Part shown: positions 13,146 through 41,606 of the stretch, piece by piece
Numbering within the stretch: the first letter of the stretch is position 1
How the letters are laid out: each line of letters opens with the position of its first letter
Origin: Candidatus Kryptoniota bacterium
Lineage (GTDB): Bacteria > Bacteroidota > Ignavibacteria > Kryptoniales > JAKASW01
Assembly: GCA_024641705.1 (NCBI GenBank)
Contig: JAHECO010000002.1
Span: forward strand, 8,282 to 72,281
Length of the DNA stretch: 64,000 nucleotides
Direction: 5' to 3'
Notes under the pieces: generated by a model
What the model was told of the DNA's origin: nothing
The model's database searches: none
The model's input: the letters and a program-made list of their open reading frames with translations, nothing else
Program-made: the position numbers and the translations under genes

Positions 13146-13264
13146 ACTAATACCGTCTTGTTAAAGAGAATTTTCCGAATCGAGTCTACCGTAAGCGGCG
13201 GGTCGGTAGGACAGCTACGAGATTACGCGGCCCGCCGGTGAAACCAAAACATCAAAGAACAGTA

Positions 13265-14707
13265 TCAGTGTCGGGCTCTTCCTCCGCTTCCTCCGCTTGC
13301 ACCCTGTGAACTCCTCGCCGGGGCCGATGCCGTTCGCATCACCGGCTGGGACGCTGCGCGGTACTCATACCGGGGAGCGCTCTGTTGAAATCGCGGCGCT
13401 TCGTAACGCGCGACCTGTTGCGCCGGCATCGAGTACTCTGCCCTCTGTCTTGTCGCCTGAATTACCCTCACTTGCCGGTAGGAAGACTGAGGACGAACTT
13501 CTCCGTTGTTGTACGAGACGTAACCGTGCCTGATCCTCGGAGGCGGGGGAGGAGGCGGCGTATTGTTCTGCGGCGGGTTATTCTGCGGAGGAGGATTGTA
13601 GCTCGGAGCCGGGTTCTGCCGCTGAGGCGGATGCGTATAACTCGGCGCATTCTCCCTTACTCGCTGCTGCGGGTTCGACTGAGGCTGAGAGTTGGGCGTC
13701 GAATTCTGCTGAGGCGGCGTATTCCTGGGCGCCTGCTCACGAACGCGCTGCTGCGGGTTCGACTGCGGAGAGCTCGGAGCCTGGCTCGGATTCCGTTGCG
13801 GGAGAGGAGTATAGCTCGGTGCTCTCTCCCTCACCCTGTGCTGGGGATTCGGTGTGGCGTTCTGCTGAGTCGGCATGTACACCGGTGCTCGCTCGCGGGT
13901 GCGCGGCGCACTCGACGTGCCCCTGACGCCAGTGGCGGCCGGTTCGCCGGTAGAACCCACCCTGGTACGCGTTACAGTTCCTTCCCGGACGTTACCGGAA
14001 ACTCCGGTGGAAGCATTGGCAGTCCCTGTGTTTGCCTGACCAGTAAGAGCATTCGGTGGGATTACATCGCCGCCATAACCCGCCCGTCCATACCGCGTGT
14101 CGCCGCTGTTCCTCACTCTCGGGGTCGGCGTACCAGACATATAAGGAGTATACCACGGATAGAGGCTGTAGGGAGAATACGGCGAATAAACGTTGTAGTA
14201 CGGGCTGTTAGGATAATATCCCGCCATATAGGGGTAGTAGTAAGAAGGGTAGTTTCCCCATCCTGCCAAACCACCGTATGAAAACGGACCGCCGTACCAT
14301 GTGTTTAATCCGAACCCGAGGTACCAGGTGTCCATCGGCCACCAAGCGGCGCTGGGACTGAACATGCTGTAGGTCCAGAGCGGCTGGTACATATAAGGCG
14401 AGCCGTAATACCCGTACCCATAACCATAAGGTGGCCACGCGTTACCATAGCCGTAGCCGCCCATGCCGTAGCTCCCGTAACCGTAGTCGTTGTACCCATA
14501 GTTGGGATTCACAGCGAGGGCGCCCGTCGAATCATAATATGTGGGGCTATAACCGTACTGTGAACTGTCCTGGGCAGTTGCACTCGAGTTGTACGATGAC
14601 CCGTAATCACCGTAATTGCCGCTCGTGGTCGCGAATTCCGTATAACAACCCGACAACCCTGACACAACCAGGAGCGACACTGCCAAAACTGCTAATCTTG
14701 TTTTCAT
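13265..14707 (-). CDS. Low-complexity lipoprotein: Tyr/Gly/Pro/Trp-rich half followed by Pro/Gln/Asn/Arg-rich tandem repeats
   Basis: The ATG at 14707 gives MKTRLAVLAVSLLVVSGLSGC (lipobox LSGC), preceded by GAGGTGA. The ORF is long despite extreme composition. The opposite-strand ORF 13385..14281 is an Arg-rich mirror artefact. Confidence 0.7.
   Translation of the reverse strand: MKTRLAVLAVSLLVVSGLSGCYTEFATTSGNYGDYGSSYNSSATAQDSSQYGYSPTYYDSTGALAVNPNYGYNDYGYGSYGMGGYGYGNAWPPYGYGYGYYGSPYMYQPLWTYSMFSPSAAWWPMDTWYLGFGLNTWYGGPFSYGGLAGWGNYPSYYYPYMAGYYPNSPYYNVYSPYSPYSLYPWYTPYMSGTPTPRVRNSGDTRYGRAGYGGDVIPPNALTGQANTGTANASTGVSGNVREGTVTRTRVGSTGEPAATGVRGTSSAPRTRERAPVYMPTQQNATPNPQHRVRERAPSYTPLPQRNPSQAPSSPQSNPQQRVREQAPRNTPPQQNSTPNSQPQSNPQQRVRENAPSYTHPPQRQNPAPSYNPPPQNNPPQNNTPPPPPPPRIRHGYVSYNNGEVRPQSSYRQVRVIQATRQRAEYSMPAQQVARYEAPRFQQSAPRYEYRAASQPVMRTASAPARSSQGASGGSGGRARH
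13536..13905 (-). repeat. In-frame tandem repeats (about 28-30 codons, 4 units) inside the lipoprotein gene
   Basis: The 20-nt string CGCTGCTGCGGGTTCGACTG occurs exactly at 13662-13681 and 13746-13765 (84-nt spacing). The protein units are R(V/T)RE.AP.Y.P..Q...NPQQ. Confidence 0.8.
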
Positions 14708-14717
14708 GGCAATCACC

Positions 14718-15005
14718 TCACTTTTTTTGACGCAAACCTTCGTCGCTGCGCTTAACTCCACCCGATGCCTGATGCGGTCCGGTCACATCGTTATGCCCCC
14801 TTCGCCATTGACCGCGGCCGTAATCGAAATAGAAAGGCGCGAAGATGACGGGGGCTGCACCCGTCTGCCAATTCATCCCTCCGTCCAGAAGAACGGCCGG
14901 TGGAGCGTAGAATCTCTGCGCCTGAGCCGCAAGGCCCACGGTGCTCAGTGTGTCTCCCGTGACCGTTCCGCCGGCGATTAGAGCCGATATAAGAACCACA
15001 ATCAT
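14718..15005 (-). CDS. Small secreted hypothetical protein (95 aa)
   Basis: ATG preceded by GAGGAA, with a hydrophobic N-terminus MIVVLISALIAGG. It ends 10 nt before the lipoprotein gene. There is no family match. Confidence 0.45.
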   Translation of the reverse strand: MIVVLISALIAGGTVTGDTLSTVGLAAQAQRFYAPPAVLLDGGMNWQTGAAPVIFAPFYFDYGRGQWRRGHNDVTGPHQASGGVKRSDEGLRQKK

Positions 15006-30868: not shown

Positions 30869-30948
30869 GTCATTCTGAAGGAGCGGAGCGGCTGAAGAAT
30901 CCACTTATTCGTTCTGAAAAATGGATGCTTCACTTCGTTCAGCATGAC
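30869..30948 (+). repeat. 80-nt inverted-repeat (hairpin) element between rbr and the Fe-S oxidoreductase gene
   Basis: GTCATTCTGAAGGAGCGGAGCGGCTGAAGAATCC (30869-30902) faces GGATGCTTCACTTCGTTCAGCATGAC (30923-30948). The shared frame is GTCATKCTGAA...GAAGMATCC. Confidence 0.6.
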
Positions 30949-30999
30949 AGACAAGACTTTCTGGACAGCCTCGCAGTTGCTAACTCAAGAGGCTCAATA

Positions 31000-32310
31000 A
31001 TGGCAACGGCATTTGATTTCAACGCCCCGGATTTTTACGACTCCGTTTCTTACGCAAAGGAGACGGCCCGCATATTCGATATTTGCAACGGCTGCAGGCT
31101 GTGTTTCAACCTCTGCCCTTCGTTCGACGTGCTGTTCAAGCGCATCGACGAACTCGACGGCGATCTCGACAAGCTCGCCGACACGGACACAAAGAAGGTC
31201 GTCGAGCTCTGCTACGACTGCAAGCTTTGCTACCCGAAGTGCCCGTACACACCGCCCCATCACTTCATGCTCGACTTCCCGCGCCACATGCTCAGAGGAA
31301 AAGCGATCGAGGCCAAGAAGCACGGCGTTGCCCTTCGCGACAAAATGCTGAGTAAAACGGATCTCCTCGGAACTGTCTCGACAAAGGTGGCGCCAATCGT
31401 GAACTGGACGCTCGAGAGCAAGCCTTTCAGGGCGATCATGGAAAAGACCGCGGGTATCCACCGTGACAGGAACCTTCCGAAGTATTCAGGCCGGACCTTC
31501 GCTTCGTGGTACGAAAAGCATAAGAAGTCCGATACGAGGGGCGAAGCACAGGATGTTGAAAATTCCCCGCAACACGCGGAGGAATCACCGAAGGTCGTCT
31601 TCTTCCATACCTGCTCGGTGAACTATAACGACGTGGATACCGGTAAGGCGGCAATCCAGGTCCTCGAGAAGAACGGCGTTCAAGTGGAAGTGCCGCCTCA
31701 GAAATGCTGCGGCATGCCTTACCTCGACGGCGGCGACATCGATAACGCAAAGAAGCACGCCCATTACAATATCAGTCAGCTTGCTGACTACGTGAAGGAG
31801 GGATACGACATCGTTTCGCCCGGGCCGAGCTGCAGTTACCTGATGAAACAGGAGTACCCGATGCTCTCCGACGATCCCGACGCGAAGCTGGTCGCTTCGC
31901 ATACCTTCGACATGATGGAGTATCTCGCAAAGCTGAACAAAGATGGAAAGTTATCCAGGGATTTCAAGAAACCGGCGGGAAATGTGACATACCACCTCCC
32001 CTGCCACTTGAAAGCGCAAAATATAGGTTTCAAGTCGCGGGACGTGCTCGAGCTGATCCCCGACACGAAGGTGGAGGTCGTGGCGAAGTGCTCCGGCCAC
32101 GACGGGACATGGAGCCTGAAGAAGGAATACTTCAAGATGTCGCTCGAAGTGGGCAAGCCCCTTTTCGAGAAATTCGGCGACGGCGCCGCTGCGGCAAGCG
32201 ATTGCCCTCTGGCACAGCTGCAGATCGAGAAGGGATCAGGCACGAAGCCTCGCCACCCGATCCAGATTCTCCGCGACTCTTACGGGCTTGAACAGGATCC
32301 AAAAGTTTAA
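31000..32310 (+). CDS. Fe-S oxidoreductase with two 4Fe-4S ferredoxin motifs and two CCG-type cysteine-rich domains (HdrD/GlcF/GlpC-like)
   Basis: CNGCRLCFNLCP and CYDCKLCYPKCP are followed by CCGMP and PCH motifs. The ATG at 31000 (MATAFDF) is preferred over 30925, which lies inside the hairpin element. Confidence 0.85.
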   Translation: MATAFDFNAPDFYDSVSYAKETARIFDICNGCRLCFNLCPSFDVLFKRIDELDGDLDKLADTDTKKVVELCYDCKLCYPKCPYTPPHHFMLDFPRHMLRGKAIEAKKHGVALRDKMLSKTDLLGTVSTKVAPIVNWTLESKPFRAIMEKTAGIHRDRNLPKYSGRTFASWYEKHKKSDTRGEAQDVENSPQHAEESPKVVFFHTCSVNYNDVDTGKAAIQVLEKNGVQVEVPPQKCCGMPYLDGGDIDNAKKHAHYNISQLADYVKEGYDIVSPGPSCSYLMKQEYPMLSDDPDAKLVASHTFDMMEYLAKLNKDGKLSRDFKKPAGNVTYHLPCHLKAQNIGFKSRDVLELIPDTKVEVVAKCSGHDGTWSLKKEYFKMSLEVGKPLFEKFGDGAAAASDCPLAQLQIEKGSGTKPRHPIQILRDSYGLEQDPKV

Positions 32311-32326
32311 GAGAAAGGAAAGCAAA

Positions 32327-32806
32327 ATGAGACCAAACATAGGCATAAAAGACAGCGACCGCGCGTCGGTCGTCGAAATACTGAATGAACTTCTATCAGA
32401 CGAATTCTTGCTTTACACGAAGACCAGGAAATTCCACTGGAACGTGACCGGTCCCCGTTTTCACGATCTCCACAAGTTCTTTGAGTCCCTGTACGAAGAG
32501 CTTGACGGCATCATCGACGATGTCGCGGAGCGGGCCAGGTCGCTCGGTGGCCCGGCGTTCGGGACTATGGCCGAGTACTCGAAGAACGCAAGGCTGACCG
32601 AATCTCCCGACGAGAATCCAAGTGAGGACGGTATGCTGAAGGAGCTCCTGAACGACCACGAGGCCGTGATCAGAACTCTCAGGGAAGACCTGGTGAAAGT
32701 CGGTGAAAAGTACGGCGACATGGGTACGAACGACTTCCTCACCGGCCTGATGGAAAAGCACGAGAAGACCGCCTGGTTTATCCGGGCATTTATGTCAGAA
32801 AAGTAA
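32327..32806 (+). CDS. dps: Dps (DNA-binding ferritin-like protein)
   Basis: LNELLSDEFLLYTKTRKFHWNVTGPRFHDLHKFFE...DDVAER is the canonical Dps ferroxidase-site context. The ATG at 32327 has the RBS GAGAAAGGAAAG. Confidence 0.9.
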   Translation: MRPNIGIKDSDRASVVEILNELLSDEFLLYTKTRKFHWNVTGPRFHDLHKFFESLYEELDGIIDDVAERARSLGGPAFGTMAEYSKNARLTESPDENPSEDGMLKELLNDHEAVIRTLREDLVKVGEKYGDMGTNDFLTGLMEKHEKTAWFIRAFMSEK

Positions 32807-32890
32807 CACAAACGCGCGGCAGGCGGCGCCGTCGGACGATGGCGCCGGCGAACCGCCGCGTCAAAAAGAGATAGGAGCAGAGAAAAAGAA

Positions 32891-33496
32891 GTGAAACCGA
32901 TCGAATTCAACGAACTGAAGAATATCATAGAGTATGAGAAGATCCGGCAGGATTTCCGGAGCAAGATTATCGAGATGAAGAACAGGCGCAGGCTGAAGGT
33001 CGGGGACCTGGTGACGCTTACATTCGAGAACAGGTATACCGTTACATTCCAGATAGAAGAGATGATGCGCGTCGAGAGAATCGTTGACGACGCCAAGATC
33101 AAGTCCGAGGTGGAAACCTACAACGAACTCATACCGAGAGAGAATGAGCTGAGCGCCACGCTGTTCGTGGAGGTGGACGAGCAATCGAAGATCAAGCCGA
33201 CCCTCGATTCACTCGTCGGCATGAACAAAGACTCCGTCTACATGAAAATCGGAGAGAAGATGATACCCGCCGTGTTCGAGGAAGGTCATGCCACGGACGA
33301 CAGGATAAGCGCGGTGCAGTACGTCAGGTTCAAGTTGTCGGCTGAAGAGTCCAGGGCTCTGGCAAATCCCGCGGTTCCCGTCAAGGTGATTATCAAGCAC
33401 GAGAACTACAACGCGGATGTCGATATGTCGAAGGCGATGAGGGAGGCCCTATACCGCGACATGACTGAAGGCAGCTCCGTGAACGTTTGGAATTGA
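32891..33496 (+). CDS. DUF3501-family protein
   Basis: YEKIRQDFRSKIIEMKNRRRLKVGDLVTLTFENRYTVTFQIEEMMRVERI matches my memory of the DUF3501 N-terminal signature. GTG start. Confidence 0.65.
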   Translation: MKPIEFNELKNIIEYEKIRQDFRSKIIEMKNRRRLKVGDLVTLTFENRYTVTFQIEEMMRVERIVDDAKIKSEVETYNELIPRENELSATLFVEVDEQSKIKPTLDSLVGMNKDSVYMKIGEKMIPAVFEEGHATDDRISAVQYVRFKLSAEESRALANPAVPVKVIIKHENYNADVDMSKAMREALYRDMTEGSSVNVWN

Positions 33497-33526
33497 AGGA
33501 ACGTTTTCATATTGAGGTCAAACGAT

Positions 33527-33919
33527 ATGCTAAGCGACACACGCCAGAGAAAACGAAGCAAGCAGCGCGAAAAGGTGCTTGACGTCGTTCGCTCCACGAA
33601 ATCCCACCCGACCGCGGACTGGGTCTTCCACGAGGTACGCAAGGAGCTGCCGAACGTCAGCCTTGCGACCGTTTACCGGAACCTCAACCTTCTCGCCGAG
33701 TCGGGAAAGATAAACGAGGTCCTTTGCGACGGCCAGCTCAGGTTCGACGCGAACCGGGACGAACATTTCCACTTCATCTGCCGGTCTTGCAAAGGGATAT
33801 TCGATATAGATGAGACCCGGGTCACCTCCCCCGACTTCAAGCTGCCGAGAGGCTACGTCGTCCAGGACGTGAGGATGGATTTCTACGGGATCTGCCCCTC
33901 CTGCCAGGCAAGTCAGTAA
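33527..33919 (+). CDS. Fur-family transcriptional regulator (PerR-like by context)
   Basis: Winged-helix region (HPTADWVFHEV...ATVYRNLNLL) and two CxxC pairs (CRSCKG, CPSCQ). The ATG at 33527 is preferred over the TTG at 33512. Confidence 0.85.
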   Translation: MLSDTRQRKRSKQREKVLDVVRSTKSHPTADWVFHEVRKELPNVSLATVYRNLNLLAESGKINEVLCDGQLRFDANRDEHFHFICRSCKGIFDIDETRVTSPDFKLPRGYVVQDVRMDFYGICPSCQASQ

Positions 33920-33945: not shown

Positions 33946-35214
33946 TCAGAACAGGTTTACGGTCACTGAGAGAGTTACGATGTCGTCCGTGAACTTGTAG
34001 TACTCGTCGTTGGACGAATTCCCGATGTGGTCGTAGTTCAGTCCCAGCGTATATCCCGCGGGGAAGCCGACCGACGGGAAAGACCTTGTTAGCCCGATAG
34101 AGATGTCCGTGTACCTGTCGTGCCGTTTGTCGGCCACGACGACGGTTTGACTGGTATCGTATGCCGGGCGATTGTAGTCCTTGCCGGCCGACCTGAATCC
34201 CACGGAGAGACCGATCCCGGCAATCAGGGAGTCTCTCTTTACCCCGATGTTGAATTCGCTCCCCTGGTATGAATACGGGTCATCATAAACCTCGGACGAC
34301 AGGCTCGTAAACTTCGCGACAGCACTGATGTATCTAGCCGTTCCCGATACATCTCTTCTGATGAGGAAACTCCCGTTCGCCTTCCACTGTCCGAGAAGGA
34401 TATTCAGACCTGCCCCGTAAGTCGTCTGGGCCGCGGATGGAGAATCGAGCACGTAAGTCTTCGCGGCGGAGGATGATTGTCCGCCGCCCTTCCCTTTCCC
34501 TTTGTAACGTCCCTGCGAATGCATGTTGATCAGGTTCTTCACGGTGGAGCTCACCGTATCGACGCCGTAGTACTTCTTGCTTCCGTAAGACCCGTTCACA
34601 TAGAAGTAGACGGAGCGCGTCGGCATGAAGGAGAGTGATACGCTGCCGCTGTTTACGAGGTTCGAAAGAGACGTGATCTCATCATAGCCGGTGTAGTTTA
34701 TGCCGTAATGCAGTCTCAGCATCGCGAGGCGTGCAATCGTGTAACGCAAGCTCCCCCCGGCGGCGGAGTTGAAGTTGGCATATGCTGCGAAATCTCCGGA
34801 GTGCGGCACCGTCCTGTTGAGCACTCCTGAGAGAGCGAGATGCGTCTCGAGCGAATCGGGGGGCATTGACAGCGGGTCTTCCGTCAGCGACGCGGCTTCG
34901 CTGCTGTCGAGGTCGTCGGCGATCCTGCTGAGCTGTATGCGGTAGCTGACGTTCAGGCTGTGGTTCCAGTTGTCCTGCTCAGGGTAAGAGCCGTAGCTCG
35001 ACAGGCCTCCGTAGTATGACATGTCCAGGTCCGAATAGTCCCAACCGACATAATTGTCGAGACCGATATTCATGCCAAGATAATTGTCCGGCACCTGGGC
35101 GTAATTGCCGAAGACATTCGAGTCGTGCGTGTATCCAAGCTGTACCGAGCCGGTAAACTGAGCCATCGATGTTGATGCAAACAGGAAAACGGCGGCGACT
35201 GCGATCTTCTTCAA
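33946..35214 (-). CDS. Predicted OM beta-barrel (exopolysaccharide-export porin candidate)
   Basis: Signal peptide MKKIAVAAVFLFASTSMAQ, N-terminal LGYTHDSNVF (seen in EPS-locus barrel families), C-terminal VNLF. It starts 3 nt after the GT2 gene. Confidence 0.6.
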   Translation of the reverse strand: MKKIAVAAVFLFASTSMAQFTGSVQLGYTHDSNVFGNYAQVPDNYLGMNIGLDNYVGWDYSDLDMSYYGGLSSYGSYPEQDNWNHSLNVSYRIQLSRIADDLDSSEAASLTEDPLSMPPDSLETHLALSGVLNRTVPHSGDFAAYANFNSAAGGSLRYTIARLAMLRLHYGINYTGYDEITSLSNLVNSGSVSLSFMPTRSVYFYVNGSYGSKKYYGVDTVSSTVKNLINMHSQGRYKGKGKGGGQSSSAAKTYVLDSPSAAQTTYGAGLNILLGQWKANGSFLIRRDVSGTARYISAVAKFTSLSSEVYDDPYSYQGSEFNIGVKRDSLIAGIGLSVGFRSAGKDYNRPAYDTSQTVVVADKRHDRYTDISIGLTRSFPSVGFPAGYTLGLNYDHIGNSSNDEYYKFTDDIVTLSVTVNLF

Positions 35215-35217
35215 TTT

Positions 35218-36501
35218 CTATTTTCCTCCCGTGGGTTCTTCGAGCTTAAACCGGACTGTCTTGGACCACGTGCGTTTTTCCCTCTTGATATAGTCCAGGT
35301 AGATCGCGCGGCCGACGACGTATATCCAGAACTGGCAGTACGTAAAGTACATCAGGAAAACGAGCAGAAAATTCCTGAATGTATCGAGTCCTTCGTAAGA
35401 CAACACCAGCATTATCTCGAGTATGAACAAGATTATCGCGAGCACCCAAACGGTCGTATATGGGCCGGGCAACGGTATCGCGACTATGTGAGAAACACTG
35501 AGGATGAAAATCAGGTCGCTGACTCCGATCGCGAAGAGAAAGATATAGTAGAGCGAGAGGAGATAGAGGACCTCGAAAGCCAGGAATTTGTTCTGGAACT
35601 GCGGTATTTCCCTGAAGAACTTGGTGACGACGTAATTGTTTCCCCGCACCCATCTCGTCCGCTGCTTCGACCAGACCGTTATCGTTTCCGGCTCCTGCTC
35701 CAGAGTTACGGCAAAAGGGATGTATTTGATCTTATACCCTTTCATGTACACTCTGATACTCAGTTCCGAATCCTCGGTTATGGCGTCTTCGTCCCAGCCG
35801 TTGAGGTCGTCGACGAGATGCTTCCAAATGACGAAATTGGTGCCGGGCAGGGTGGCAACTTTGAACAGAGCCCAACGGCCGGCCTGCAGTATTGCCTGGA
35901 AGCTCATTGTTTCTATGCTGACAAACCGCGTAAGCCAGGTCCTGTCTTTGTTTATGGTCCGGAAATTCCCGAGGACCGCCCCGAGCTCCGGATGGAGGAG
36001 AAGCTCGGCCACCAGATATTTCAGAGCGTCCGGCAGAGGCTGGTTGTCGGCATCGTACACTGCGATCACCTCGGCGTCGGTCTGTTTCAGACCGATGTTC
36101 AGAGCCCTCGATTTTCCTTTTCCCCCTTCGCCTTTCGGCACATTGTAACACCGGACACGTCTGTCGTGCTTCGATATGCTCTCGACGATTTCCCCCGTCT
36201 TGTCCGAAGATCCGTCGTTGATCACGAGTATCTCGAGTTTCTCCTCCGGATAGTCCAGGCGAAGCATCGCTTCGAGTGTCTTCTGTATCACTGTCTCTTC
36301 GTTGTGGGCCGGGATGAGGATACAGACCCTGGGACTCTCAAAATGTGTGAGATTATCTATCGACTTCTTCTCTTTCGCCGAACTCCAGTTATGGGAAAAA
36401 CCCGCTATTGTTAGAACAAGCTGGTAGGCGATCATGAACCAGATGAAAATTACGGAAAGGACAAACAGCGCACCCAGCAGCGTGGTGAAGAAATCAAACA
36501 T
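35218..36501 (-). CDS. Processive family-2 glycosyltransferase (PgaC/IcaA/BcsA-class polysaccharide synthase-like), membrane-integrated
   Basis: N-terminal TM, ILIPAHNEE, NDGSSD, YDADN, TED (AITEDSELS) and QRTRW (the QxxRW motif), then several C-terminal TM helices. Confidence 0.9.
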   Translation of the reverse strand: MFDFFTTLLGALFVLSVIFIWFMIAYQLVLTIAGFSHNWSSAKEKKSIDNLTHFESPRVCILIPAHNEETVIQKTLEAMLRLDYPEEKLEILVINDGSSDKTGEIVESISKHDRRVRCYNVPKGEGGKGKSRALNIGLKQTDAEVIAVYDADNQPLPDALKYLVAELLLHPELGAVLGNFRTINKDRTWLTRFVSIETMSFQAILQAGRWALFKVATLPGTNFVIWKHLVDDLNGWDEDAITEDSELSIRVYMKGYKIKYIPFAVTLEQEPETITVWSKQRTRWVRGNNYVVTKFFREIPQFQNKFLAFEVLYLLSLYYIFLFAIGVSDLIFILSVSHIVAIPLPGPYTTVWVLAIILFILEIMLVLSYEGLDTFRNFLLVFLMYFTYCQFWIYVVGRAIYLDYIKREKRTWSKTVRFKLEEPTGGK

Positions 36502-39500
36502 GCGCAGCTGCCCTTCTTCTTCTCAGCTTGAGTGTAAAGTATAAGATGATCAAAATCCCGCCGGCGAGCGAGCCGAAGATAGCGATAAGAGAGGATGACC
36601 AGAGACTTGTCATGTCGATCCCGTACGAGACCGTACTCTCAAGTACAACGAGGACTTTGTGCTGCCCCGGGGGGAGGACGATTCCGTAATGTTGCTCTTC
36701 GCGGGCAACGGTGAACGACACGTCGTGATCGTCGACAAGGACGGCATAAGGAATCTTTCCGAAAGAAACAGCGCATCTTCCTGGAGAATCGTACGTGAAT
36801 TCCACTCCTCTCTGGAATGTCCGTTCACTCAGGATGTTGCACGAGGCCGCTTCGATGTGCGACTGCATAAGGCCGCTTTCGAACGGATTCACGTCGGCCT
36901 TCACGATCTTCACCAGATGGTCACCGGCAGGAATGGAGAAATTGCCGGGCTGGTAGGGGTAGACTGTTTTTCCATCGACGGAGATCTCAGCCACGTCGTC
37001 GCTCAACCGAAGCGAAGTAGAGTACGGCGCGCCTATGCTGAACCCGTCGGGAGTCACCTGGAAGTCTGCCTGCGGCACCGACGCGAAGGAGAACTCTGCC
37101 ACGTCCTGGGGATAGGCCGTCGCCTCCGAGTAGACTGTCGTTCTCGGCGCGGCCGTAGCGGCGGAATTGACGAGAAGGTAACTCTCTATTCCGGTCGGTG
37201 TCTTCGTCGGAAACACGCCGTTGTAGTTGGACTGCCTGAACTCGAGTATGTTAAGGTCGATCATCAAATCTGATGAATCGGGTCCGAGCAGCCGCTTGTA
37301 TGTGTCACCGATCGAAATATAGCGGCGCGGGTCCGAGTTCCAATTCGCTTCGGGGTCTTCGACATCAAGTATGAACTTGTACTGCTCCCGCAATCTTAGG
37401 ATTTGATCCATGTTCACACCGATAGTGGTCAACAGGGCGGGAAAGGTTTTCTGGTCGAGCACCGTGAGGACAATCTGCGCGCCGGGTTTATCCTTGAAGG
37501 CGCCGGTCGCAAGACCGAGGAAGTGTGCCGTCAGGCTCGTGACCAGCGAGGTGCGGAACGTGACGAAGCTCTTCCAGTCCTGCGGCGATGTCTTATAGTA
37601 ATGGGGCGAATTCTGCTGGAACAGCTGTACCGGATCGAATCCGTACTTCTTCCTGAACATGACCCGGGCGCTCTGATTAAACGGTGTGAGCACCCTCGGA
37701 TCGCCCGGCGCTCCTTCACCGCCGAAATATAGCTCGCCGATGTTCACGCCGTCCCAGTCGTACGACGTCAGGAACTTGTAGATCCAGTCGGAAGCGGCGT
37801 TAAGGCAGGCTGTGTCGGTAAGCGCAACGGGATAGCGCCAATCCGGACGCACATCCTCACCTTTGTAATTCTTCTCGTGCCATTGCGGGTGGTCATCGTA
37901 AAATTTCTTGCTGATCTGCGGCGGCTCAATCCAGGCATAAACTGTAATCCCGTAAGCGTGACAGAGCCTTATGAGCCTTTCGTAGTCGTACATGAATTTC
38001 GGGTACTCATGCCATCCCGCCACGTGGATGGTCCTGATTCCGCGGCTGGCCCATTCCTTCACGAGAGCTTCCACGCTGATGTTCCTGCGGAGGCCGGGAT
38101 CGAAATACATTTCAAGGTCGTTGCGTCTCAACGACGGGTACAGCTGCAGGTAATTCTTGATCCACTCGATGAAATACGGAAATCTCGAGTAACCTCCGTC
38201 GGTGACGGGATCGAAGCGGGCGGTTATTGCAATGAATTTCCCCTTCCCGTAGTTCCTGGCAATCGCCACCGGCGCGTCGTTCACATCGTTGGTGCAGATC
38301 ACCTGGTCGCTTTCTTCGACGTCGATCCGGTGGACCGACTCGAACGTGCCCCAGCTGAGGAGCTCCTCCGGAAACAGCCTGTCCCTCACCTTCTCGAGGC
38401 GCATTACATTCTGGCTGAACTTCACGCCGAGGTCGACAGCGAGAGGGTTTTTCGCGTCGGTGATCACGTTCCCTCCGTCGGATACAAACTTTTCGAGTAT
38501 TTCGTAAAGCGAATCCGGGAGGCTGTCTGCGACCGCATATGGTACGACGATCAGATTGTAGCCCTGAAGACTTCCAAGGTTCCCCGCGGCAAGAGTGTCG
38601 ACCGGGATTCCCACGCTCCTGAGGGCCGTCACGAAACTCGACTCGTCCAGCCTGGCACCGCCGGCCGCGGTCGGATTCCACAATATGCCGGCGACCCCCG
38701 GAGTCACGCGTTTCTTCTCGGGAAATATCCCGTTCCACATGTTCTTCAACGCGATCGTTACTCTGTCGAAAAACGTCAGTTCCTTTTCCCTGTACTCGAT
38801 CGGCTCCGCGGCGTAAATCCAACCCGGCTGGAGGTCGATGTTCCTTGATATGGTTTCGGTGATCCTTTTCGGAGTTATGTCTCTCTTTACCCTCTCGCCG
38901 TTCTGGTCGAGATAAACCTCTTTAAGATACTGGTCCTCGATGGAGACCTTGAACGACTCCTTTCCGGAGACGATGGCCCTGTCCGGAAGCCTGACGATGT
39001 TGCTGCTGTCCCTGAGGCTGACAAATGTATAACCGAGATCCCTGATCCCGTCCACAATTTCTTTGAGAAGGTGGATCGGCATGAAAGGGTGAAAGAAAGC
39101 TGTGGCGTAGCCGTCCCTGACGTACAGGTTCGCCTTCGCCGCGGCTAGTATATCCTGCACGGCCTTCTCTTCTTCCTGTGGAGATCCGAGGGGGACGTAG
39201 CCCACGTTCTCAGGAATGATCTTCTCCCCGTACATGTCGCTCTGTATCACGTACGGAAAATCCTGGCTGTAGTCGAGGTCGTCCATCACGATCCTCTCCT
39301 CGACTGCCGTCGAGAACACCTTCGCGATGGCTGCGTAATCGATTTCAGAGGCACCGTAGTGAGGCGTCTCCCAGGCCAGCGGGTAGATGCCGTTTCTCAT
39401 CAGTTCCTCGACTCCGGTTTCCAGTTTCTGCTGGACGTAAGCTGTGTTGTCGTTGGCGATCGGCCTGTTGAGTGCGCTGTCCCAGAACTCGTAATCGTTG

Positions 39501-40423
39501 TCGGTGACACCGTGATATTGATGTGTGACTCCGTGCATGACTATTGTAGCCCCATGCGCTTCGGCATACCTGAGGGCGTCGACCATGTCGGGCTTATCCG
39601 AAAGCGAGATGCGGACGTTGTTCGAAGGATCGACATAAAAGGGGACTACTGCAATCAGAAAGGGTACGTTTTCGCCGTACAACAGGTCGGTAATTTTCCT
39701 GATGCTACCTGGATCCTCAGTCGGGTCTACATCCTCTATCCGGATCATCGCAGAATGGAATTCCGGATGTTCCTGGCCGAGTATGTCATGAAGCTTCTCT
39801 GCGAAGAAGATGTATCTGTCCGTAGGGCCGATGTAGGAGAAAGGCGAGTCTCCGAAGAGGTACAGGTTGCCGGTATGGATTGCGTAAGGAGATACCACAT
39901 GGTGCGGCGCGAATGCGTTCGCAAGAACTTCGACTTTTGTCCTGTTCGTAATCGAGACCATTGTCAGGTAATTGTCGCCCTTGTCGAACCTGAAGTCCCT
40001 GTCGGTGGGGACGACGGCGTCGAACCCAGCCGTGGAATCGTAGTATTCGGGGACGAAGCCGTATTTCTCCGAGAGGCTATGACGGGCATTCAGCGCGATT
40101 ATGCCGGTGTTTAGCCAGACCAGCGTGCCTTTGTAATTGTATGCATCGTCAAGAAATTTGTCGGGGGGCTGGCAAGTGCTGGTGAACCCGTCGAAGAAGA
40201 GGTAGTCGTACCCGTTGCATTCTCCGGGTCGGTAGTCGTTGGCCGCCGCGAGTTTTTTCTGCAGATCGAAATGTCCCAGGAGCTGGAACAGCTGGAGTGC
40301 GTCTCCTTTGGCAGGGTTGCCGCGGACATCTTTTCCTTCATAGACTATCAGCACACGGTTTCCCGCAAAGAGGTTGCCGCTATAGAGCATCAGCATCGTC
40401 AGCACAATTCTTCTTATCATCAC
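36494..40423 (-). CDS. 1309-aa secreted, C-terminally anchored multidomain protein: DUF2334-type polysaccharide deacetylase-like domain plus glycoside-hydrolase-like TIM barrel
   Basis: Signal peptide. Residues ~225-470: IRIEDVDP, VPFLIAVVPFY, MHGVTHQY, WETPHY (DUF2334-like). Residues ~770-1060: IHVAGWHEYP, VYAWIEPP, YDWDGVNIGELYF (GH-like). C-terminal TM SLIAIFGSLAGGILIILYF plus RRRR. Confidence 0.75.
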   Translation of the reverse strand: MMIRRIVLTMLMLYSGNLFAGNRVLIVYEGKDVRGNPAKGDALQLFQLLGHFDLQKKLAAANDYRPGECNGYDYLFFDGFTSTCQPPDKFLDDAYNYKGTLVWLNTGIIALNARHSLSEKYGFVPEYYDSTAGFDAVVPTDRDFRFDKGDNYLTMVSITNRTKVEVLANAFAPHHVVSPYAIHTGNLYLFGDSPFSYIGPTDRYIFFAEKLHDILGQEHPEFHSAMIRIEDVDPTEDPGSIRKITDLLYGENVPFLIAVVPFYVDPSNNVRISLSDKPDMVDALRYAEAHGATIVMHGVTHQYHGVTDNDYEFWDSALNRPIANDNTAYVQQKLETGVEELMRNGIYPLAWETPHYGASEIDYAAIAKVFSTAVEERIVMDDLDYSQDFPYVIQSDMYGEKIIPENVGYVPLGSPQEEEKAVQDILAAAKANLYVRDGYATAFFHPFMPIHLLKEIVDGIRDLGYTFVSLRDSSNIVRLPDRAIVSGKESFKVSIEDQYLKEVYLDQNGERVKRDITPKRITETISRNIDLQPGWIYAAEPIEYREKELTFFDRVTIALKNMWNGIFPEKKRVTPGVAGILWNPTAAGGARLDESSFVTALRSVGIPVDTLAAGNLGSLQGYNLIVVPYAVADSLPDSLYEILEKFVSDGGNVITDAKNPLAVDLGVKFSQNVMRLEKVRDRLFPEELLSWGTFESVHRIDVEESDQVICTNDVNDAPVAIARNYGKGKFIAITARFDPVTDGGYSRFPYFIEWIKNYLQLYPSLRRNDLEMYFDPGLRRNISVEALVKEWASRGIRTIHVAGWHEYPKFMYDYERLIRLCHAYGITVYAWIEPPQISKKFYDDHPQWHEKNYKGEDVRPDWRYPVALTDTACLNAASDWIYKFLTSYDWDGVNIGELYFGGEGAPGDPRVLTPFNQSARVMFRKKYGFDPVQLFQQNSPHYYKTSPQDWKSFVTFRTSLVTSLTAHFLGLATGAFKDKPGAQIVLTVLDQKTFPALLTTIGVNMDQILRLREQYKFILDVEDPEANWNSDPRRYISIGDTYKRLLGPDSSDLMIDLNILEFRQSNYNGVFPTKTPTGIESYLLVNSAATAAPRTTVYSEATAYPQDVAEFSFASVPQADFQVTPDGFSIGAPYSTSLRLSDDVAEISVDGKTVYPYQPGNFSIPAGDHLVKIVKADVNPFESGLMQSHIEAASCNILSERTFQRGVEFTYDSPGRCAVSFGKIPYAVLVDDHDVSFTVAREEQHYGIVLPPGQHKVLVVLESTVSYGIDMTSLWSSSLIAIFGSLAGGILIILYFTLKLRRRRAAAHV

Positions 40424-40631
40424 GAGATCTTTTTCACCGGATTAGTTCTGTTGTAGGGTTAGCCGATCCGACCGCCGCAGGTATAACCTCCGCCGGCCGC
40501 GGAAGACAGTTGCCGCAAAACGCAATTGCCTCCGCCTAAGATGGGTTTCGGACATTCTGGACAAGGGCGGGACACTCTTTCGAGAGACAGACCCGATGTG
40601 CAGGTCTCTCCCCACATTTCATTCATACGAT

Positions 40632-41606
40632 TTAGTCTTTTCCGTCCCAGCTGTTGTATTTTTCGTACGCGTCGATGATGTCCTTGACGAGCTTGTGTCG
40701 TACGACGTCGGTCTTCTCGAGGTAAACGAAGCTGACACCCTCGACGCCCTTCAGGACTTTCTGAATCTCGACCAGACCGCTCAGGCTCTTCTGAGGAAGG
40801 TCGATCTGCGTAATGTCGCCCGTCACGATCGCCTTCGAGTTCACGCCCAGCCGGGTAAGGAACATCTTCATCTGCATGGCCGATGCGTTTTGAGCCTCAT
40901 CCAGGATAACGAACGCGTTGCCCAGCGTTCTCCCCCGCATATAGGCAAGAGGCGCAATCTCGATCACGTTCTTCTCGACGTACAGCTTCAGCTTGTCCTG
41001 CGGAAGCATGTCGTCCAACGCGTCATAAAGAGGCCGCAGATAGGGAATCACCTTCTCTTTGAGGTCACCCGGGAGAAAACCGAGACTCTCCCCCGCTTCG
41101 ACTGCAGGCCTGGTTAGCACGATTTTCTGGACCTCCCTGTTACGGAGTGCTGCGACGGCCATTGCCACGGCGAGGTAAGTTTTTCCCGTACCTGCGGGTC
41201 CTATCACAAAGACCACGTCGTTCTTCTGTACGGACCTCACAAACTGTCTCTGCCCGGGGGTCTTCGGCTTTATCAGGTCGTTCCTCGCCGAAAGGACAAC
41301 CGTATCTCTCGATCCCTCTTCGCCGGCCCTCGCAGATTCTCCTTCGCCCGAGACGAGTTCGACAACCGTCACAACATCGTCGGTCCTAAGGACGCCCGTC
41401 TTGTCGAGGACGTACATGAGTTCCTTGAAAACCTTCTCGACGCGGGCAGTCTCGTCCTCCTCACCCTTAATGGTGATGCTATCGCCGCGCACGATTATGT
41501 TCGCATCGAACCGGTCGGAAATTATCTGGAGATTTGAATCGTTGATTCCGAGGAGCGATAGAGGATCGACTCCCGAAATCCTTATCCGTTTTTCAACGAT
41601 ATCCAT
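40632..41606 (-). CDS. phoH: PhoH-family ATPase
   Basis: Walker A IGPAGTGKTYLAVA, GFLPGD, and ILDEAQN in the typical PhoH arrangement. Confidence 0.9.
   Translation of the reverse strand: MDIVEKRIRISGVDPLSLLGINDSNLQIISDRFDANIIVRGDSITIKGEEDETARVEKVFKELMYVLDKTGVLRTDDVVTVVELVSGEGESARAGEEGSRDTVVLSARNDLIKPKTPGQRQFVRSVQKNDVVFVIGPAGTGKTYLAVAMAVAALRNREVQKIVLTRPAVEAGESLGFLPGDLKEKVIPYLRPLYDALDDMLPQDKLKLYVEKNVIEIAPLAYMRGRTLGNAFVILDEAQNASAMQMKMFLTRLGVNSKAIVTGDITQIDLPQKSLSGLVEIQKVLKGVEGVSFVYLEKTDVVRHKLVKDIIDAYEKYNSWDGKD

Follow-up and report, generated by a model that had tools for sequence, protein, structure and literature searches.

PgaB, the periplasmic partner of the poly-N-acetylglucosamine (PNAG) synthase PgaC, joins a deacetylase domain of carbohydrate esterase (CE) family CE4 to a TIM-barrel glycosidase domain of glycoside hydrolase (GH) family GH153, and PgaA, the outer-membrane protein of the same system, is a 16-stranded barrel. 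In the cellulose system, the bulk of BcsB lies in the periplasm and is held by a single C-terminal transmembrane helix, which packs against the synthase BcsA (structure 4HG6). In the Pel system, PelA carries a GH166 and a CE-like domain and the synthase PelF belongs to GT4, while NfrB-NfrA-YbcH produce a cyclic di-GMP (c-di-GMP)-dependent exopolysaccharide (EPS) that contains N-acetylmannosamine and is needed by phage N4 to infect Escherichia coli. The E. coli Nfr system depends on the UDP-N-acetylglucosamine (UDP-GlcNAc) 2-epimerase WecB/NfrC (PMC8669469). The ydaJKLMN genes of Bacillus subtilis are responsible for an EPS of undefined structure under the control of YdaK and c-di-GMP (PMC5422440, PMC7064775), and a 2026 study found that the yda polymer was bound by GSL-I, a lectin for alpha-galactose (alpha-Gal) and N-acetylgalactosamine (GalNAc) (PMC13274460). 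Here, we describe a three-gene locus of Candidatus Kryptoniota bacterium (assembly GCA_024641705.1, contig JAHECO010000002.1), which encodes a giant YdaL-like protein, a family 2 glycosyltransferase (GT2) and an outer-membrane barrel, and which we consider to be probably a synthase-dependent EPS system of a diderm bacterium of the Fibrobacteres-Chlorobi-Bacteroidetes (FCB) group. The whole stretch of DNA that was analysed, 64,000 nt in length, is called the window below, and coordinates are window positions unless a locus is named.

Organisation of the three-gene locus

The locus consists of three minus-strand open reading frames (ORFs), namely gene 1 (36494..40423, 1309 aa, GTG start in the ORF list), gene 2 (35218..36501, 427 aa, ATG) and gene 3 (33946..35214, 422 aa, TTG). 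Genes 1 and 2 overlap by 8 nt (36494-36501) and genes 2 and 3 are separated by 3 nt (35215-35217), which agrees with the tight packing reported in an earlier note on this DNA. ORFs of such length with hundreds of homologues are not a product of chance. The second codon of gene 1 is an ATG (40420) that directly follows the listed GTG. Since the 1308-aa product starting from this ATG is recorded exactly (P0409, on a 213,689-bp NCBI/Logan contig) and the close homologues of gene 1 are also 1308 aa, the true start of gene 1 is probably ATG 40420. Thus, the 1309 aa given in the earlier note is correct as the length of the ORF, but its GTG is probably not the start codon.

The GT2 encoded by gene 2

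Gene 2 encodes an inner-membrane GT2 synthase of the processive type, as judged from the Pfam GT2 match, NCBIfam matches, motifs, hydropathy and gene linkage. The full set of motifs claimed previously is present (D96, YDADN with D150-A-D152, TED with T242-E-D244, and QRTRW with Q280-R-T-R-W284), together with hydrophobic segments at residues 1-36 and 305-397. The D, DxD, TED and QxxRW residues are invariant in all 67 family GT2s compared, which share 113 invariant positions overall. The best curated family was PgaC/IcaA (NCBIfam TIGR03937; 173 bits over residues 18-379, E 9e-51; cutoff 422 bits), followed by MftF (94 bits), CelA (85 bits; cutoff 699) and NodC (81 bits), and the PDB sequence matches were BcsA, which was the best, and hyaluronan synthase. 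The members of the same sequence cluster are labelled as Candidatus Kryptobacter or Bacteroidetes metagenome-assembled genomes (MAGs).

Domain architecture of the giant protein

The ORF, its translation, its homologues and an AlphaFold2 (AF2) model indicate that gene 1 encodes an inner-membrane-anchored periplasmic multidomain protein with YdaL-like DUF2334 and GH-like modules. A signal peptide predicted from the sequence (residues 1-20, 40364..40423; MMIRRIVLTMLMLYSGNLFA before the cut, then GN), which is not conserved in the family, is followed by an N-terminal alpha/beta domain (residues 21-190, 39854..40363; AF2, BLAST and MAFFT) that is common to stand-alone YdaL-like proteins; the BLAST and MAFFT alignments with DUF2334 proteins of Ralstonia and Firmicutes start at residues 15-23. 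Then come the DUF2334 deacetylase-like domain (residues 204-465, 39029..39814; Pfam and conservation), which AF2 models as a barrel, a beta-sandwich (residues 475-542, 38798..39001) with a linker helix (residues 551-566) in the AF2 model, and a domain of the class 1 glutamine amidotransferase (GATase1) type resembling the GH42 'trimerisation' domain (residues 578-733, 38225..38692; Glyco_hydro_42M, a profile match to 5xb7 and AF2). A (beta/alpha)8 TIM barrel of the GHL6/GHL10/GH42 type (residues 751-1114, 37082..38173; GHL6, Foldseek and AF2) precedes a C-terminal beta-sandwich region (residues 1120-1270, 36614..37066), where AF2 places strands at 1120-1174 and the motif 'vDG...G.F.iPxGxHxV' occurs twice. 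The protein ends with a single transmembrane helix (residues 1272-1300, 36524..36610; hydropathy and conservation) and RRRR. The AF2 model of residues 21-1195, built with 55 homologues as input, reached a predicted local distance difference test score (pLDDT) of 87.9 and a predicted template modelling score (pTM) of 0.75. Besides the signal peptide, the only hydrophobic segment in the hydropathy profile is 1274-1300. With a signal peptide at the N-terminus and an anchor at the C-terminus, the body of ca. 1250 residues should be periplasmic, which corresponds to the secreted, C-terminally anchored protein that had been noted before.

A protein homology search returned 876 homologues of the giant protein. 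The closest one listed is 87% identical (P0004), the 90% cluster of the window protein itself being represented by a 109-aa fragment. Searching the PDB sequences with the giant protein and with the family profile yielded only a marginal match to GH42 domain B (5xb7), so that neither half of the protein has a solved close relative.

The DUF2334 domain was matched by PF10096 at residues 225-459 (E 3e-50), while the CE4 family PF01522 was not found in the giant protein by the Pfam search; the domain is accordingly of the DUF2334 type, not CE4, as the earlier note had stated. When the N-terminal half of the window protein was aligned with stand-alone DUF2334 proteins of Ralstonia, Bacillus, Priestia, Radiobacillus, Ectobacillus and Paenibacillus (23-35% identity), the motifs R228-x-E230-D231, H297-G-x-x-H301-Q, E312-x-W314, E352-x-P-H355-Y, P404-E405 and F443-x-H445-P were invariant, providing R228, E230, D231, H297, H301, E312, W314, E352, H355, E405 and H445 as candidate metal-binding or catalytic residues. 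CE4 enzymes carry the motifs TFDD, H-S/T-x-x-H and LxH, and an Asp, an HxxxH and a late His are expected of a metal-dependent de-N-acetylase. The Asp-His-His pattern of DUF2334 (D231, H297 and H301, with HxxxH spacing) resembles that of the CE4 N-deacetylases, and a deacetylase activity of the domain is a well-supported inference. In addition, members of the DUF2334 family bear the NCBI name 'polysaccharide deacetylase family protein', and one of them (P0406) also matches PF01522. In the searchable literature, DUF2334 was mentioned only in two unrelated papers, and the family appears to be unstudied as far as we found.

The GH-like half was matched below the Pfam thresholds by GHL6 (residues 815-876) and Glyco_hydro_42M (residues 597-655). 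These weak matches recur in the family, GHL6 in 15 of 20 members and Glyco_hydro_42M in 19 of 20 (best E 4.4e-7). When the model of the TIM barrel was compared with the PDB using Foldseek, Cwp19 of Clostridioides difficile (5oq2, GHL10-type) came first with a template modelling score (TMt) of 0.60, followed by GH42 beta-galactosidases, GH164 and other enzymes of this kind. The invariant carboxylates of the barrel include D891, E897, E1022, D1023, D1056, E1080 and E1100. The recurrence of the weak matches, the confident AF2 model and these structural matches all favour the fused GH-like TIM barrel with extra domains that had been suggested from the sequence.

Some relatives have other combinations of these modules. 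Four longer variants (P0143, P0228, P0265 and P0282; 1580-1770 aa) carry an extra N-terminal TIM barrel of the GHL6/GHL10 type before DUF2334; this extra barrel matches GHL6 with 44.7 bits, above the Pfam cutoff of 35, which gives each of these proteins two GH-like barrels. A search with the C-terminal half also yielded many homologues that consist of this half alone (GATase-like domain, TIM barrel and sandwich; 700-740 aa), without Pfam matches. GT2 and DUF2334 genes were absent from the five such contexts that were read (L081-L085, with P0181, P0186, P0223, P0188 and P0166); two of these contexts lie near a contig end, and one looks archaeal, its contig carrying archaeal-type GatD/GatE. A plasmid collection searched with the C-terminal half gave no match. 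We considered whether the giant protein is a fusion of YdaL and YdaN (576 + 703 aa), but this was not supported, given the five contexts without GT2 and DUF2334 and given that the 337-370-aa partners in the Firmicute loci are unlike the giant protein. A homology search seeded with a YdaL-like protein of a Bacillus thuringiensis plasmid gave predominantly matches from the B. cereus group.

Among all regions of the giant protein, the C-terminal transmembrane helix had the top share of invariant columns (9 of 29, 31%, as against 27% in DUF2334 and 18% in the TIM barrel), and the invariant residues in this region are T1272, S1273, W1275, S1276, S1277, I1280, F1283, G1284 and L1291. Such conservation is unusual for a passive anchor and suggests, by analogy with the BcsB anchor and BcsA, a specific packing against the synthase. 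The same machine could also be built around a giant protein that is mainly a non-catalytic scaffold or co-polymerase like BcsB, in which the transmembrane helix activates the synthase and the domains guide the chain, with at most one of them being enzymatic. The BcsB-like topology (periplasmic bulk plus a single C-terminal helix), the position of the helix as the most conserved segment and the sub-threshold GH-like matches are consistent with a scaffold, and the C-terminal domain of PgaB was likewise long regarded as a binding domain. However, D231, H297, H301 and H445 and several carboxylates of the TIM barrel are invariant at 23-45% identity, beyond what folding needs, and a mainly non-catalytic role is in our view unlikely.

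The outer-membrane barrel encoded by gene 3

Gene 3 encodes a secreted 16-stranded outer-membrane beta-barrel, as supported by AF2, Foldseek and the Pfam matches of its homologues. The protein has a signal peptide (MKKIAVAAVFLFASTSMA, then QF), contains no hydrophobic helix and ends with ...VTVNLF. In the AF2 model (pLDDT 74, pTM 0.71), 16 long antiparallel strands follow the signal peptide, and the Foldseek matches were mostly outer-membrane porins, with OprD/Occ, OmpG and chitoporin on top; since their TM-scores were only ca. 0.45-0.5, the likeness to porins is a generic one. The window protein itself had no Pfam family match and no match in the PDB sequence search, and there was a faint match to a PEP-CTERM-associated outer-membrane protein family. 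Its homologues matched SlipAM (7 of 13, best E 2.7e-8) and BBP2_2 (3 of 13). The model thus points to an outer-membrane barrel fold, in line with the barrel ending in Phe of the earlier note, and a role in export may be proposed for it. A low-complexity Lys/Gly/Ser loop (YKGKGKGGGQSSSAAK; barrel residues ca. 236-251, 34460-34510) was observed inside a poorly modelled loop (218-258), and its core G239-K-G241 is invariant among 13 barrel homologues.

Conservation of the locus across genomes

The distribution of the locus was examined with one genome per species, and at least 576 species were found to encode a relative of the giant protein; the taxa and identities given next are drawn from the best 80 of the at least 576 matching stretches. 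These best 80 relatives are all full-length genes (ca. 1300 aa) in MAGs, with identities of 70-86% in MAGs of Kryptoniota or 'Bacteroidetes' and of 43-49% in Ignavibacteria, Bacteroidota, Chlorobi-labelled bins, Acidobacteriota and Thermoanaerobaculaceae. At the genome level, the closest relatives are MAGs of Candidatus Kryptoniota.

Of the 68 loci with enough DNA, 67 have the GT2 gene after the giant gene. The barrel family, as traced with jackhmmer, is less constant and is the same-strand neighbour of the GT2 gene in only 19 of 65, lies elsewhere within the 8-kb flank in 8 and is absent there in 38. Based on these counts, the conserved functional unit is the pair of the giant gene and the GT2 gene, and the barrel gene is an ancestral-looking third gene that has often been lost or relocated. 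The three-gene operon proposed in the earlier note therefore holds for the window, but not as the unit that is conserved. The giant proteins of the loci with the barrel right after GT2 range from 70-82% down to 43-47% identity to that of the window. Close relatives that retain the same phoH...fur synteny have no barrel gene (L003, L012, L015 and L019, at about 13200-13700 of the loci); in L003, GT2 runs to 13212 and is followed by fur from 13218. Only an N-terminal barrel remnant of ca. 100-135 residues is left in L011 and L013 (13176-13541). These observations point to a recent loss of the exporter gene in close relatives. In L002, identity to the window proteins is 64% for the barrel, as compared to 82% and 90% for the giant protein and GT2, respectively; the barrel evolves faster than the other two. 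No replacement exporter was found in the barrel-less loci, in which the genes after GT2 are unrelated ones (amidase, MoxR ATPase, transposase, a propeller protein with a type IX secretion system tail and M61 peptidase). In L050, a DDE transposase gene (13368-14861) lies right after GT2, in the slot occupied elsewhere by the barrel gene.

If the barrel were an optional or unrelated neighbour, the conserved pair might make a glycan that is retained in the envelope (periplasmic, membrane- or wall-attached) rather than a secreted EPS. The 38 loci without a barrel within 8 kb, the loss of the gene in L003, L012, L015 and L019, the remnants in L011 and L013 and the unrelated nature of the replacing neighbours can be explained in this way. 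On the other hand, the barrel gene stands right after GT2 in 19 loci, over a range of giant proteins from 82% to 43% identity, and close by in 8 others; only 3 nt separate the two genes in the window, and genomes lacking a local copy, among them the complete genomes OY969800.1 and OY969888.1, could have the barrel gene elsewhere. Moreover, the homologous Firmicute loci have been tied to secreted EPS (PMC5422440, PMC13274460). A retained glycan thus appears distinctly unlikely, and we continue to regard the product as probably a secreted EPS.

Comparison with the yda and Nfr systems

Members of the giant-protein family are labelled 'uncharacterized protein YdaL' by JGI and NCBI, in accordance with the suggestion in the earlier note that YdaL is DUF2334-like. 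The comparison with yda was made with YdaL-like proteins and DUF2334-linked GT2s of Firmicutes other than B. subtilis. The Firmicute YdaL-like proteins consist of a signal peptide, an alpha/beta domain, DUF2334, a beta-sandwich and a C-terminal transmembrane helix, which is the layout of the N-terminal half of the window protein with the anchor moved. Over the full length, the window GT2 is 38% identical to the GT2 of Priestia (266 bits) and 35% identical to that of Radiobacillus (251 bits), scores more than twice that of the window GT2 against PgaC. The gene order is GH8 - DUF2334 - 254 aa - GT2 - 337 aa in Priestia koreensis and DUF2334 - GT2 - 350 aa in Ectobacillus; in Radiobacillus, DUF2334 lies beside a divergent set of 262 aa - GT2 - 340 aa, and in Paenibacillus, the order is DUF2334 - GH8 with GT2 close by. 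In three further Firmicute contexts, DUF2334 stands alone.

Compared with these loci, the giant protein of the window has a 750-residue insertion of GATase-like domain, TIM barrel and beta-sandwich ahead of the anchor, and the window locus is a diderm version with an outer-membrane barrel. It also differs in having no GH8 (YdaJ) or degenerate-GGDEF receptor (YdaK) in its neighbourhood and none of the ca. 255-aa and 337-370-aa partners of the Firmicute loci. Since the pair of DUF2334 and GT2 also occurs in Firmicute yda-type loci next to GH8, ydaJKLMN, itself poorly understood, is the closest characterised relative of the window locus. What the earlier note had called an analogy stands as a resemblance, but the sequence similarity indicates that it is probably homology of the DUF2334 and GT2 core, i.e. 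of two parts, which makes the locus somewhat less novel than implied.

DUF2334 was also found on the megaplasmid of Ralstonia solanacearum OE1-1 (L086, CP009763.1, 533296-541590), which encodes a stand-alone 578-aa DUF2334 protein sharing 32% identity with residues 23-468 of the giant protein. The operon consists, in this order, of genes for an NfrB-like GT2, an NfrA-like porin, WecB (UDP-GlcNAc 2-epimerase), a hypothetical protein, DUF2334 and a hypothetical protein of 295 aa, and by its gene content it resembles an Nfr-type system to which a DUF2334 enzyme has been added. Matches to this DUF2334 gene were present in 136 Ralstonia plasmid records, in one of which the operon was read. Ralstonia thus provides a second case, independent of the first, in which DUF2334 is associated with a synthase-type system, here one of the N-acetylhexosamine (HexNAc) type. 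The window locus differs from it in that its GT2 is only ca. 22% identical to the Ralstonia NfrB-like glycosyltransferase and has no MshEN domain, and in that its barrel has no significant match to NfrA.

These comparisons bear on the nature of the polymer, which might be a glucan or a mixed polymer rather than a HexNAc chain; in that case, DUF2334 would perform another hydrolysis, such as O-deacetylation or the cleavage of another ester or amide. The window GT2 stays at 173 bits, far below the PgaC cutoff of 422 bits, and has further matches to cellulose synthase and MftF. In Firmicute loci, DUF2334 is accompanied by GH8, a family in which both cellulases and chitosanases are found. Furthermore, the yda polymer was bound by an alpha-Gal/GalNAc lectin (PMC13274460). 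Nevertheless, no other curated family comes near PgaC/IcaA as a match of GT2 (173 bits versus 94 bits for the next), the Asp-His-His pattern of DUF2334 resembles that of CE4 N-deacetylases, and the Ralstonia DUF2334 gene lies with genes for an NfrB-like synthase and for a UDP-GlcNAc 2-epimerase; this epimerase, WecB/NfrC, is also required by Nfr of E. coli (PMC8669469). A polymer other than HexNAc is hence quite unlikely, and a HexNAc chain is assumed below.

Comparison with the Pga, Bcs and Pel systems

The window locus resembles the PNAG system in combining a PgaC-like GT2, a periplasmic protein with a deacetylase-like domain and a glycosidase-like TIM barrel (CE4 + GH153 in PgaB) and an outer-membrane barrel, and the gene for the putative modifying enzyme precedes the synthase gene with an 8-nt overlap, as is also the case for pgaB-pgaC of E. 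coli. PgaB is the closest architectural analogue of the giant protein. The parts are different, however. E. coli PgaC is only 27.5% identical to the window GT2 (115 bits), which at 173 bits does not reach the equivalog cutoff of 422 bits, and PgaB and PgaA of E. coli gave no BLAST match to the window proteins. By Pfam, the giant protein has no GHL13 (GH153) or CE4 PF01522 domain, having DUF2334 in place of CE4 and a GHL6/GHL10-like TIM barrel in place of GHL13/GH153. It is anchored by a transmembrane helix, whereas PgaB is anchored by a lipid; the window barrel has no TPR domain, and PgaD is lacking, there being no room for a small ORF between the tightly joined genes. On these sequence comparisons, the locus is not a PNAG locus. 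The earlier note had foreseen that the triad might turn out to belong to PNAG, or that no deacetylase or hydrolase fold and no barrel might be found; the former is contradicted by the values above and the latter by the hidden Markov model (HMM) searches and the AF2 and Foldseek results. Its description of a synthase-dependent logic built from different parts is borne out by the domains and motifs and by the fact that the PNAG parts are not orthologous.

With the Bcs system, the window locus shares a processive GT2 whose large periplasmic partner is anchored by one transmembrane helix at the C-terminus, and BcsA is the best match of GT2 among solved structures. In contrast to Bcs, the GT2 has only 427 aa and no PilZ domain, no BcsB fold (Pfam) and no BcsC TPR-porin are present, and the partner bears enzyme-like domains. 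As in the Pel system, where PelA acts on a HexNAc polymer, one periplasmic protein joins a GH-like and a deacetylase-like domain, but PelA is built from GH166 and a CE-like domain, PelF is a GT4 synthase, and no sequence relation was seen. TPR, PilZ, GGDEF, PgaD-like and MshEN sequences were not found in the three proteins or in the neighbours between 30.9 and 46.5 kb, in agreement with the earlier note as to a TPR scaffold, PilZ and a PgaD-like gene, though they could be encoded elsewhere.

A model for synthesis, modification and export

From the above, the following model is proposed. The GT2 would polymerise a nucleotide sugar, most likely UDP-HexNAc to judge from its family, in the inner membrane and pass the growing polymer to the other side by way of its own membrane helices, like PgaC, BcsA and hyaluronan synthase. 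Three points favour a beta-linked HexNAc chain: among the curated families PgaC comes closest, the partner resembles a deacetylase, and wecB is part of the Ralstonia operon. The giant protein, whose production may be translationally coupled to that of GT2 as the 8-nt overlap suggests, would leave the cytoplasm by means of its signal peptide and stay fixed in the inner membrane beside the synthase by its C-terminal helix, a topology predicted from the sequence; packing of this helix against the synthase, like that of the BcsB anchor against BcsA, is probable. DUF2334 would then remove part of the N-acetyl groups through its putative Asp-His-His metal site, and the GHL6/GHL10-like TIM barrel may bind and/or cleave the polymer, a division of labour as in PgaB (CE4 + GH153) or PelA that would have been achieved with different folds. 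Where present, the 16-stranded barrel would let the polymer pass through the outer membrane, and the ectodomain of 1250 residues may span the periplasm in place of a TPR scaffold.

Several observations weigh against this model. As for DUF2334, the alignment of the family profile with a single CE4 sequence by hhalign was not significant, and no member with a solved structure or an assay was found in the PDB and literature searches. Not one member of the giant-protein family is known to have an enzyme activity, a polymer or a phenotype assigned to it. Since the GH-like matches of the window protein are below the Pfam thresholds, its TIM barrel could be a binding module and not an enzyme. The barrel gene is absent within 8 kb in 38 of the 65 loci, including close relatives with fur right after GT2, and the binding of the yda polymer by GSL-I does not, by analogy, obviously fit a PNAG-like product. 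Finally, no regulator was detected among the neighbours (30.9-46.5 kb) or by Rfam.

Flanking genes and upstream region

The gene upstream of the operon is phoH, which is on the same strand with a gap of 208 bp, and argG, an aminotransferase gene and argH are located further upstream. Downstream lies a convergent fur, followed by genes for DUF3501, a ferritin-like protein and Fe-S proteins. These flanking genes are unrelated to polysaccharide synthesis. The cluster that converges on the operon (30925-33919; CCG/4Fe-4S protein, ferritin-like protein, DUF3501 and Fur) looks like one for iron or oxidative stress, and it is kept beside GT2 in close relatives. In E. coli K-12 (1084992-1092289), phoH adjoins pgaD, and there is an 8-nt overlap between pgaB and pgaC; the window (36494-41606) has phoH next to the operon and the 8-nt overlap described above. 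This shared arrangement is probably a coincidence. Rfam detected no riboswitch, including those for c-di-GMP, in the window or in the 208-bp leader, a scan for sigma-70 promoters and terminators gave a background level, and little conservation was seen among the upstream regions in close relatives.

Implications

The locus fits the established synthase-dependent paradigm, with the logic of Pga, Bcs, Pel and Nfr, and looks like a widespread cousin of these systems, not a new principle. Tentatively, the pair with its optional TPR-less 16-stranded porin may constitute a distinct, undescribed synthase-dependent pathway present in at least 576 species, in which one protein combines a DUF2334 polymer deacetylase with a GHL-type hydrolase and is attached to the synthase by its conserved C-terminal helix. 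The product of the pathway would be a HexNAc polymer that has lost part of its acetyl groups and differs from classical PNAG and from any characterised EPS; we regard this reading as a whole as possible, with somewhat less than even confidence. If so, the functions of PgaB plus BcsB would have been assembled from non-homologous parts, and the product of the Bacillus yda locus would be revealed as well.

A matrix polysaccharide pathway common in FCB and Acidobacteriota lineages of soil, sediment and hot springs would then have gone unnoticed. DUF2334 (COG5298/YdaL) would gain a biochemical role as a polysaccharide deacetylase, and TIM barrels of the GHL6/GHL10 type would gain a context in EPS processing. 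Comparison with the locus would also help in understanding the ydaJKLMN polymer, the composition of which has stayed unsettled through a decade of work on its control by c-di-GMP. The shared core of DUF2334 and GT2 would mark the catalytic essentials, and the lineage-specific parts, namely GH8, YdaK, the barrel and the fused TIM module, would point to envelope-specific adaptations.

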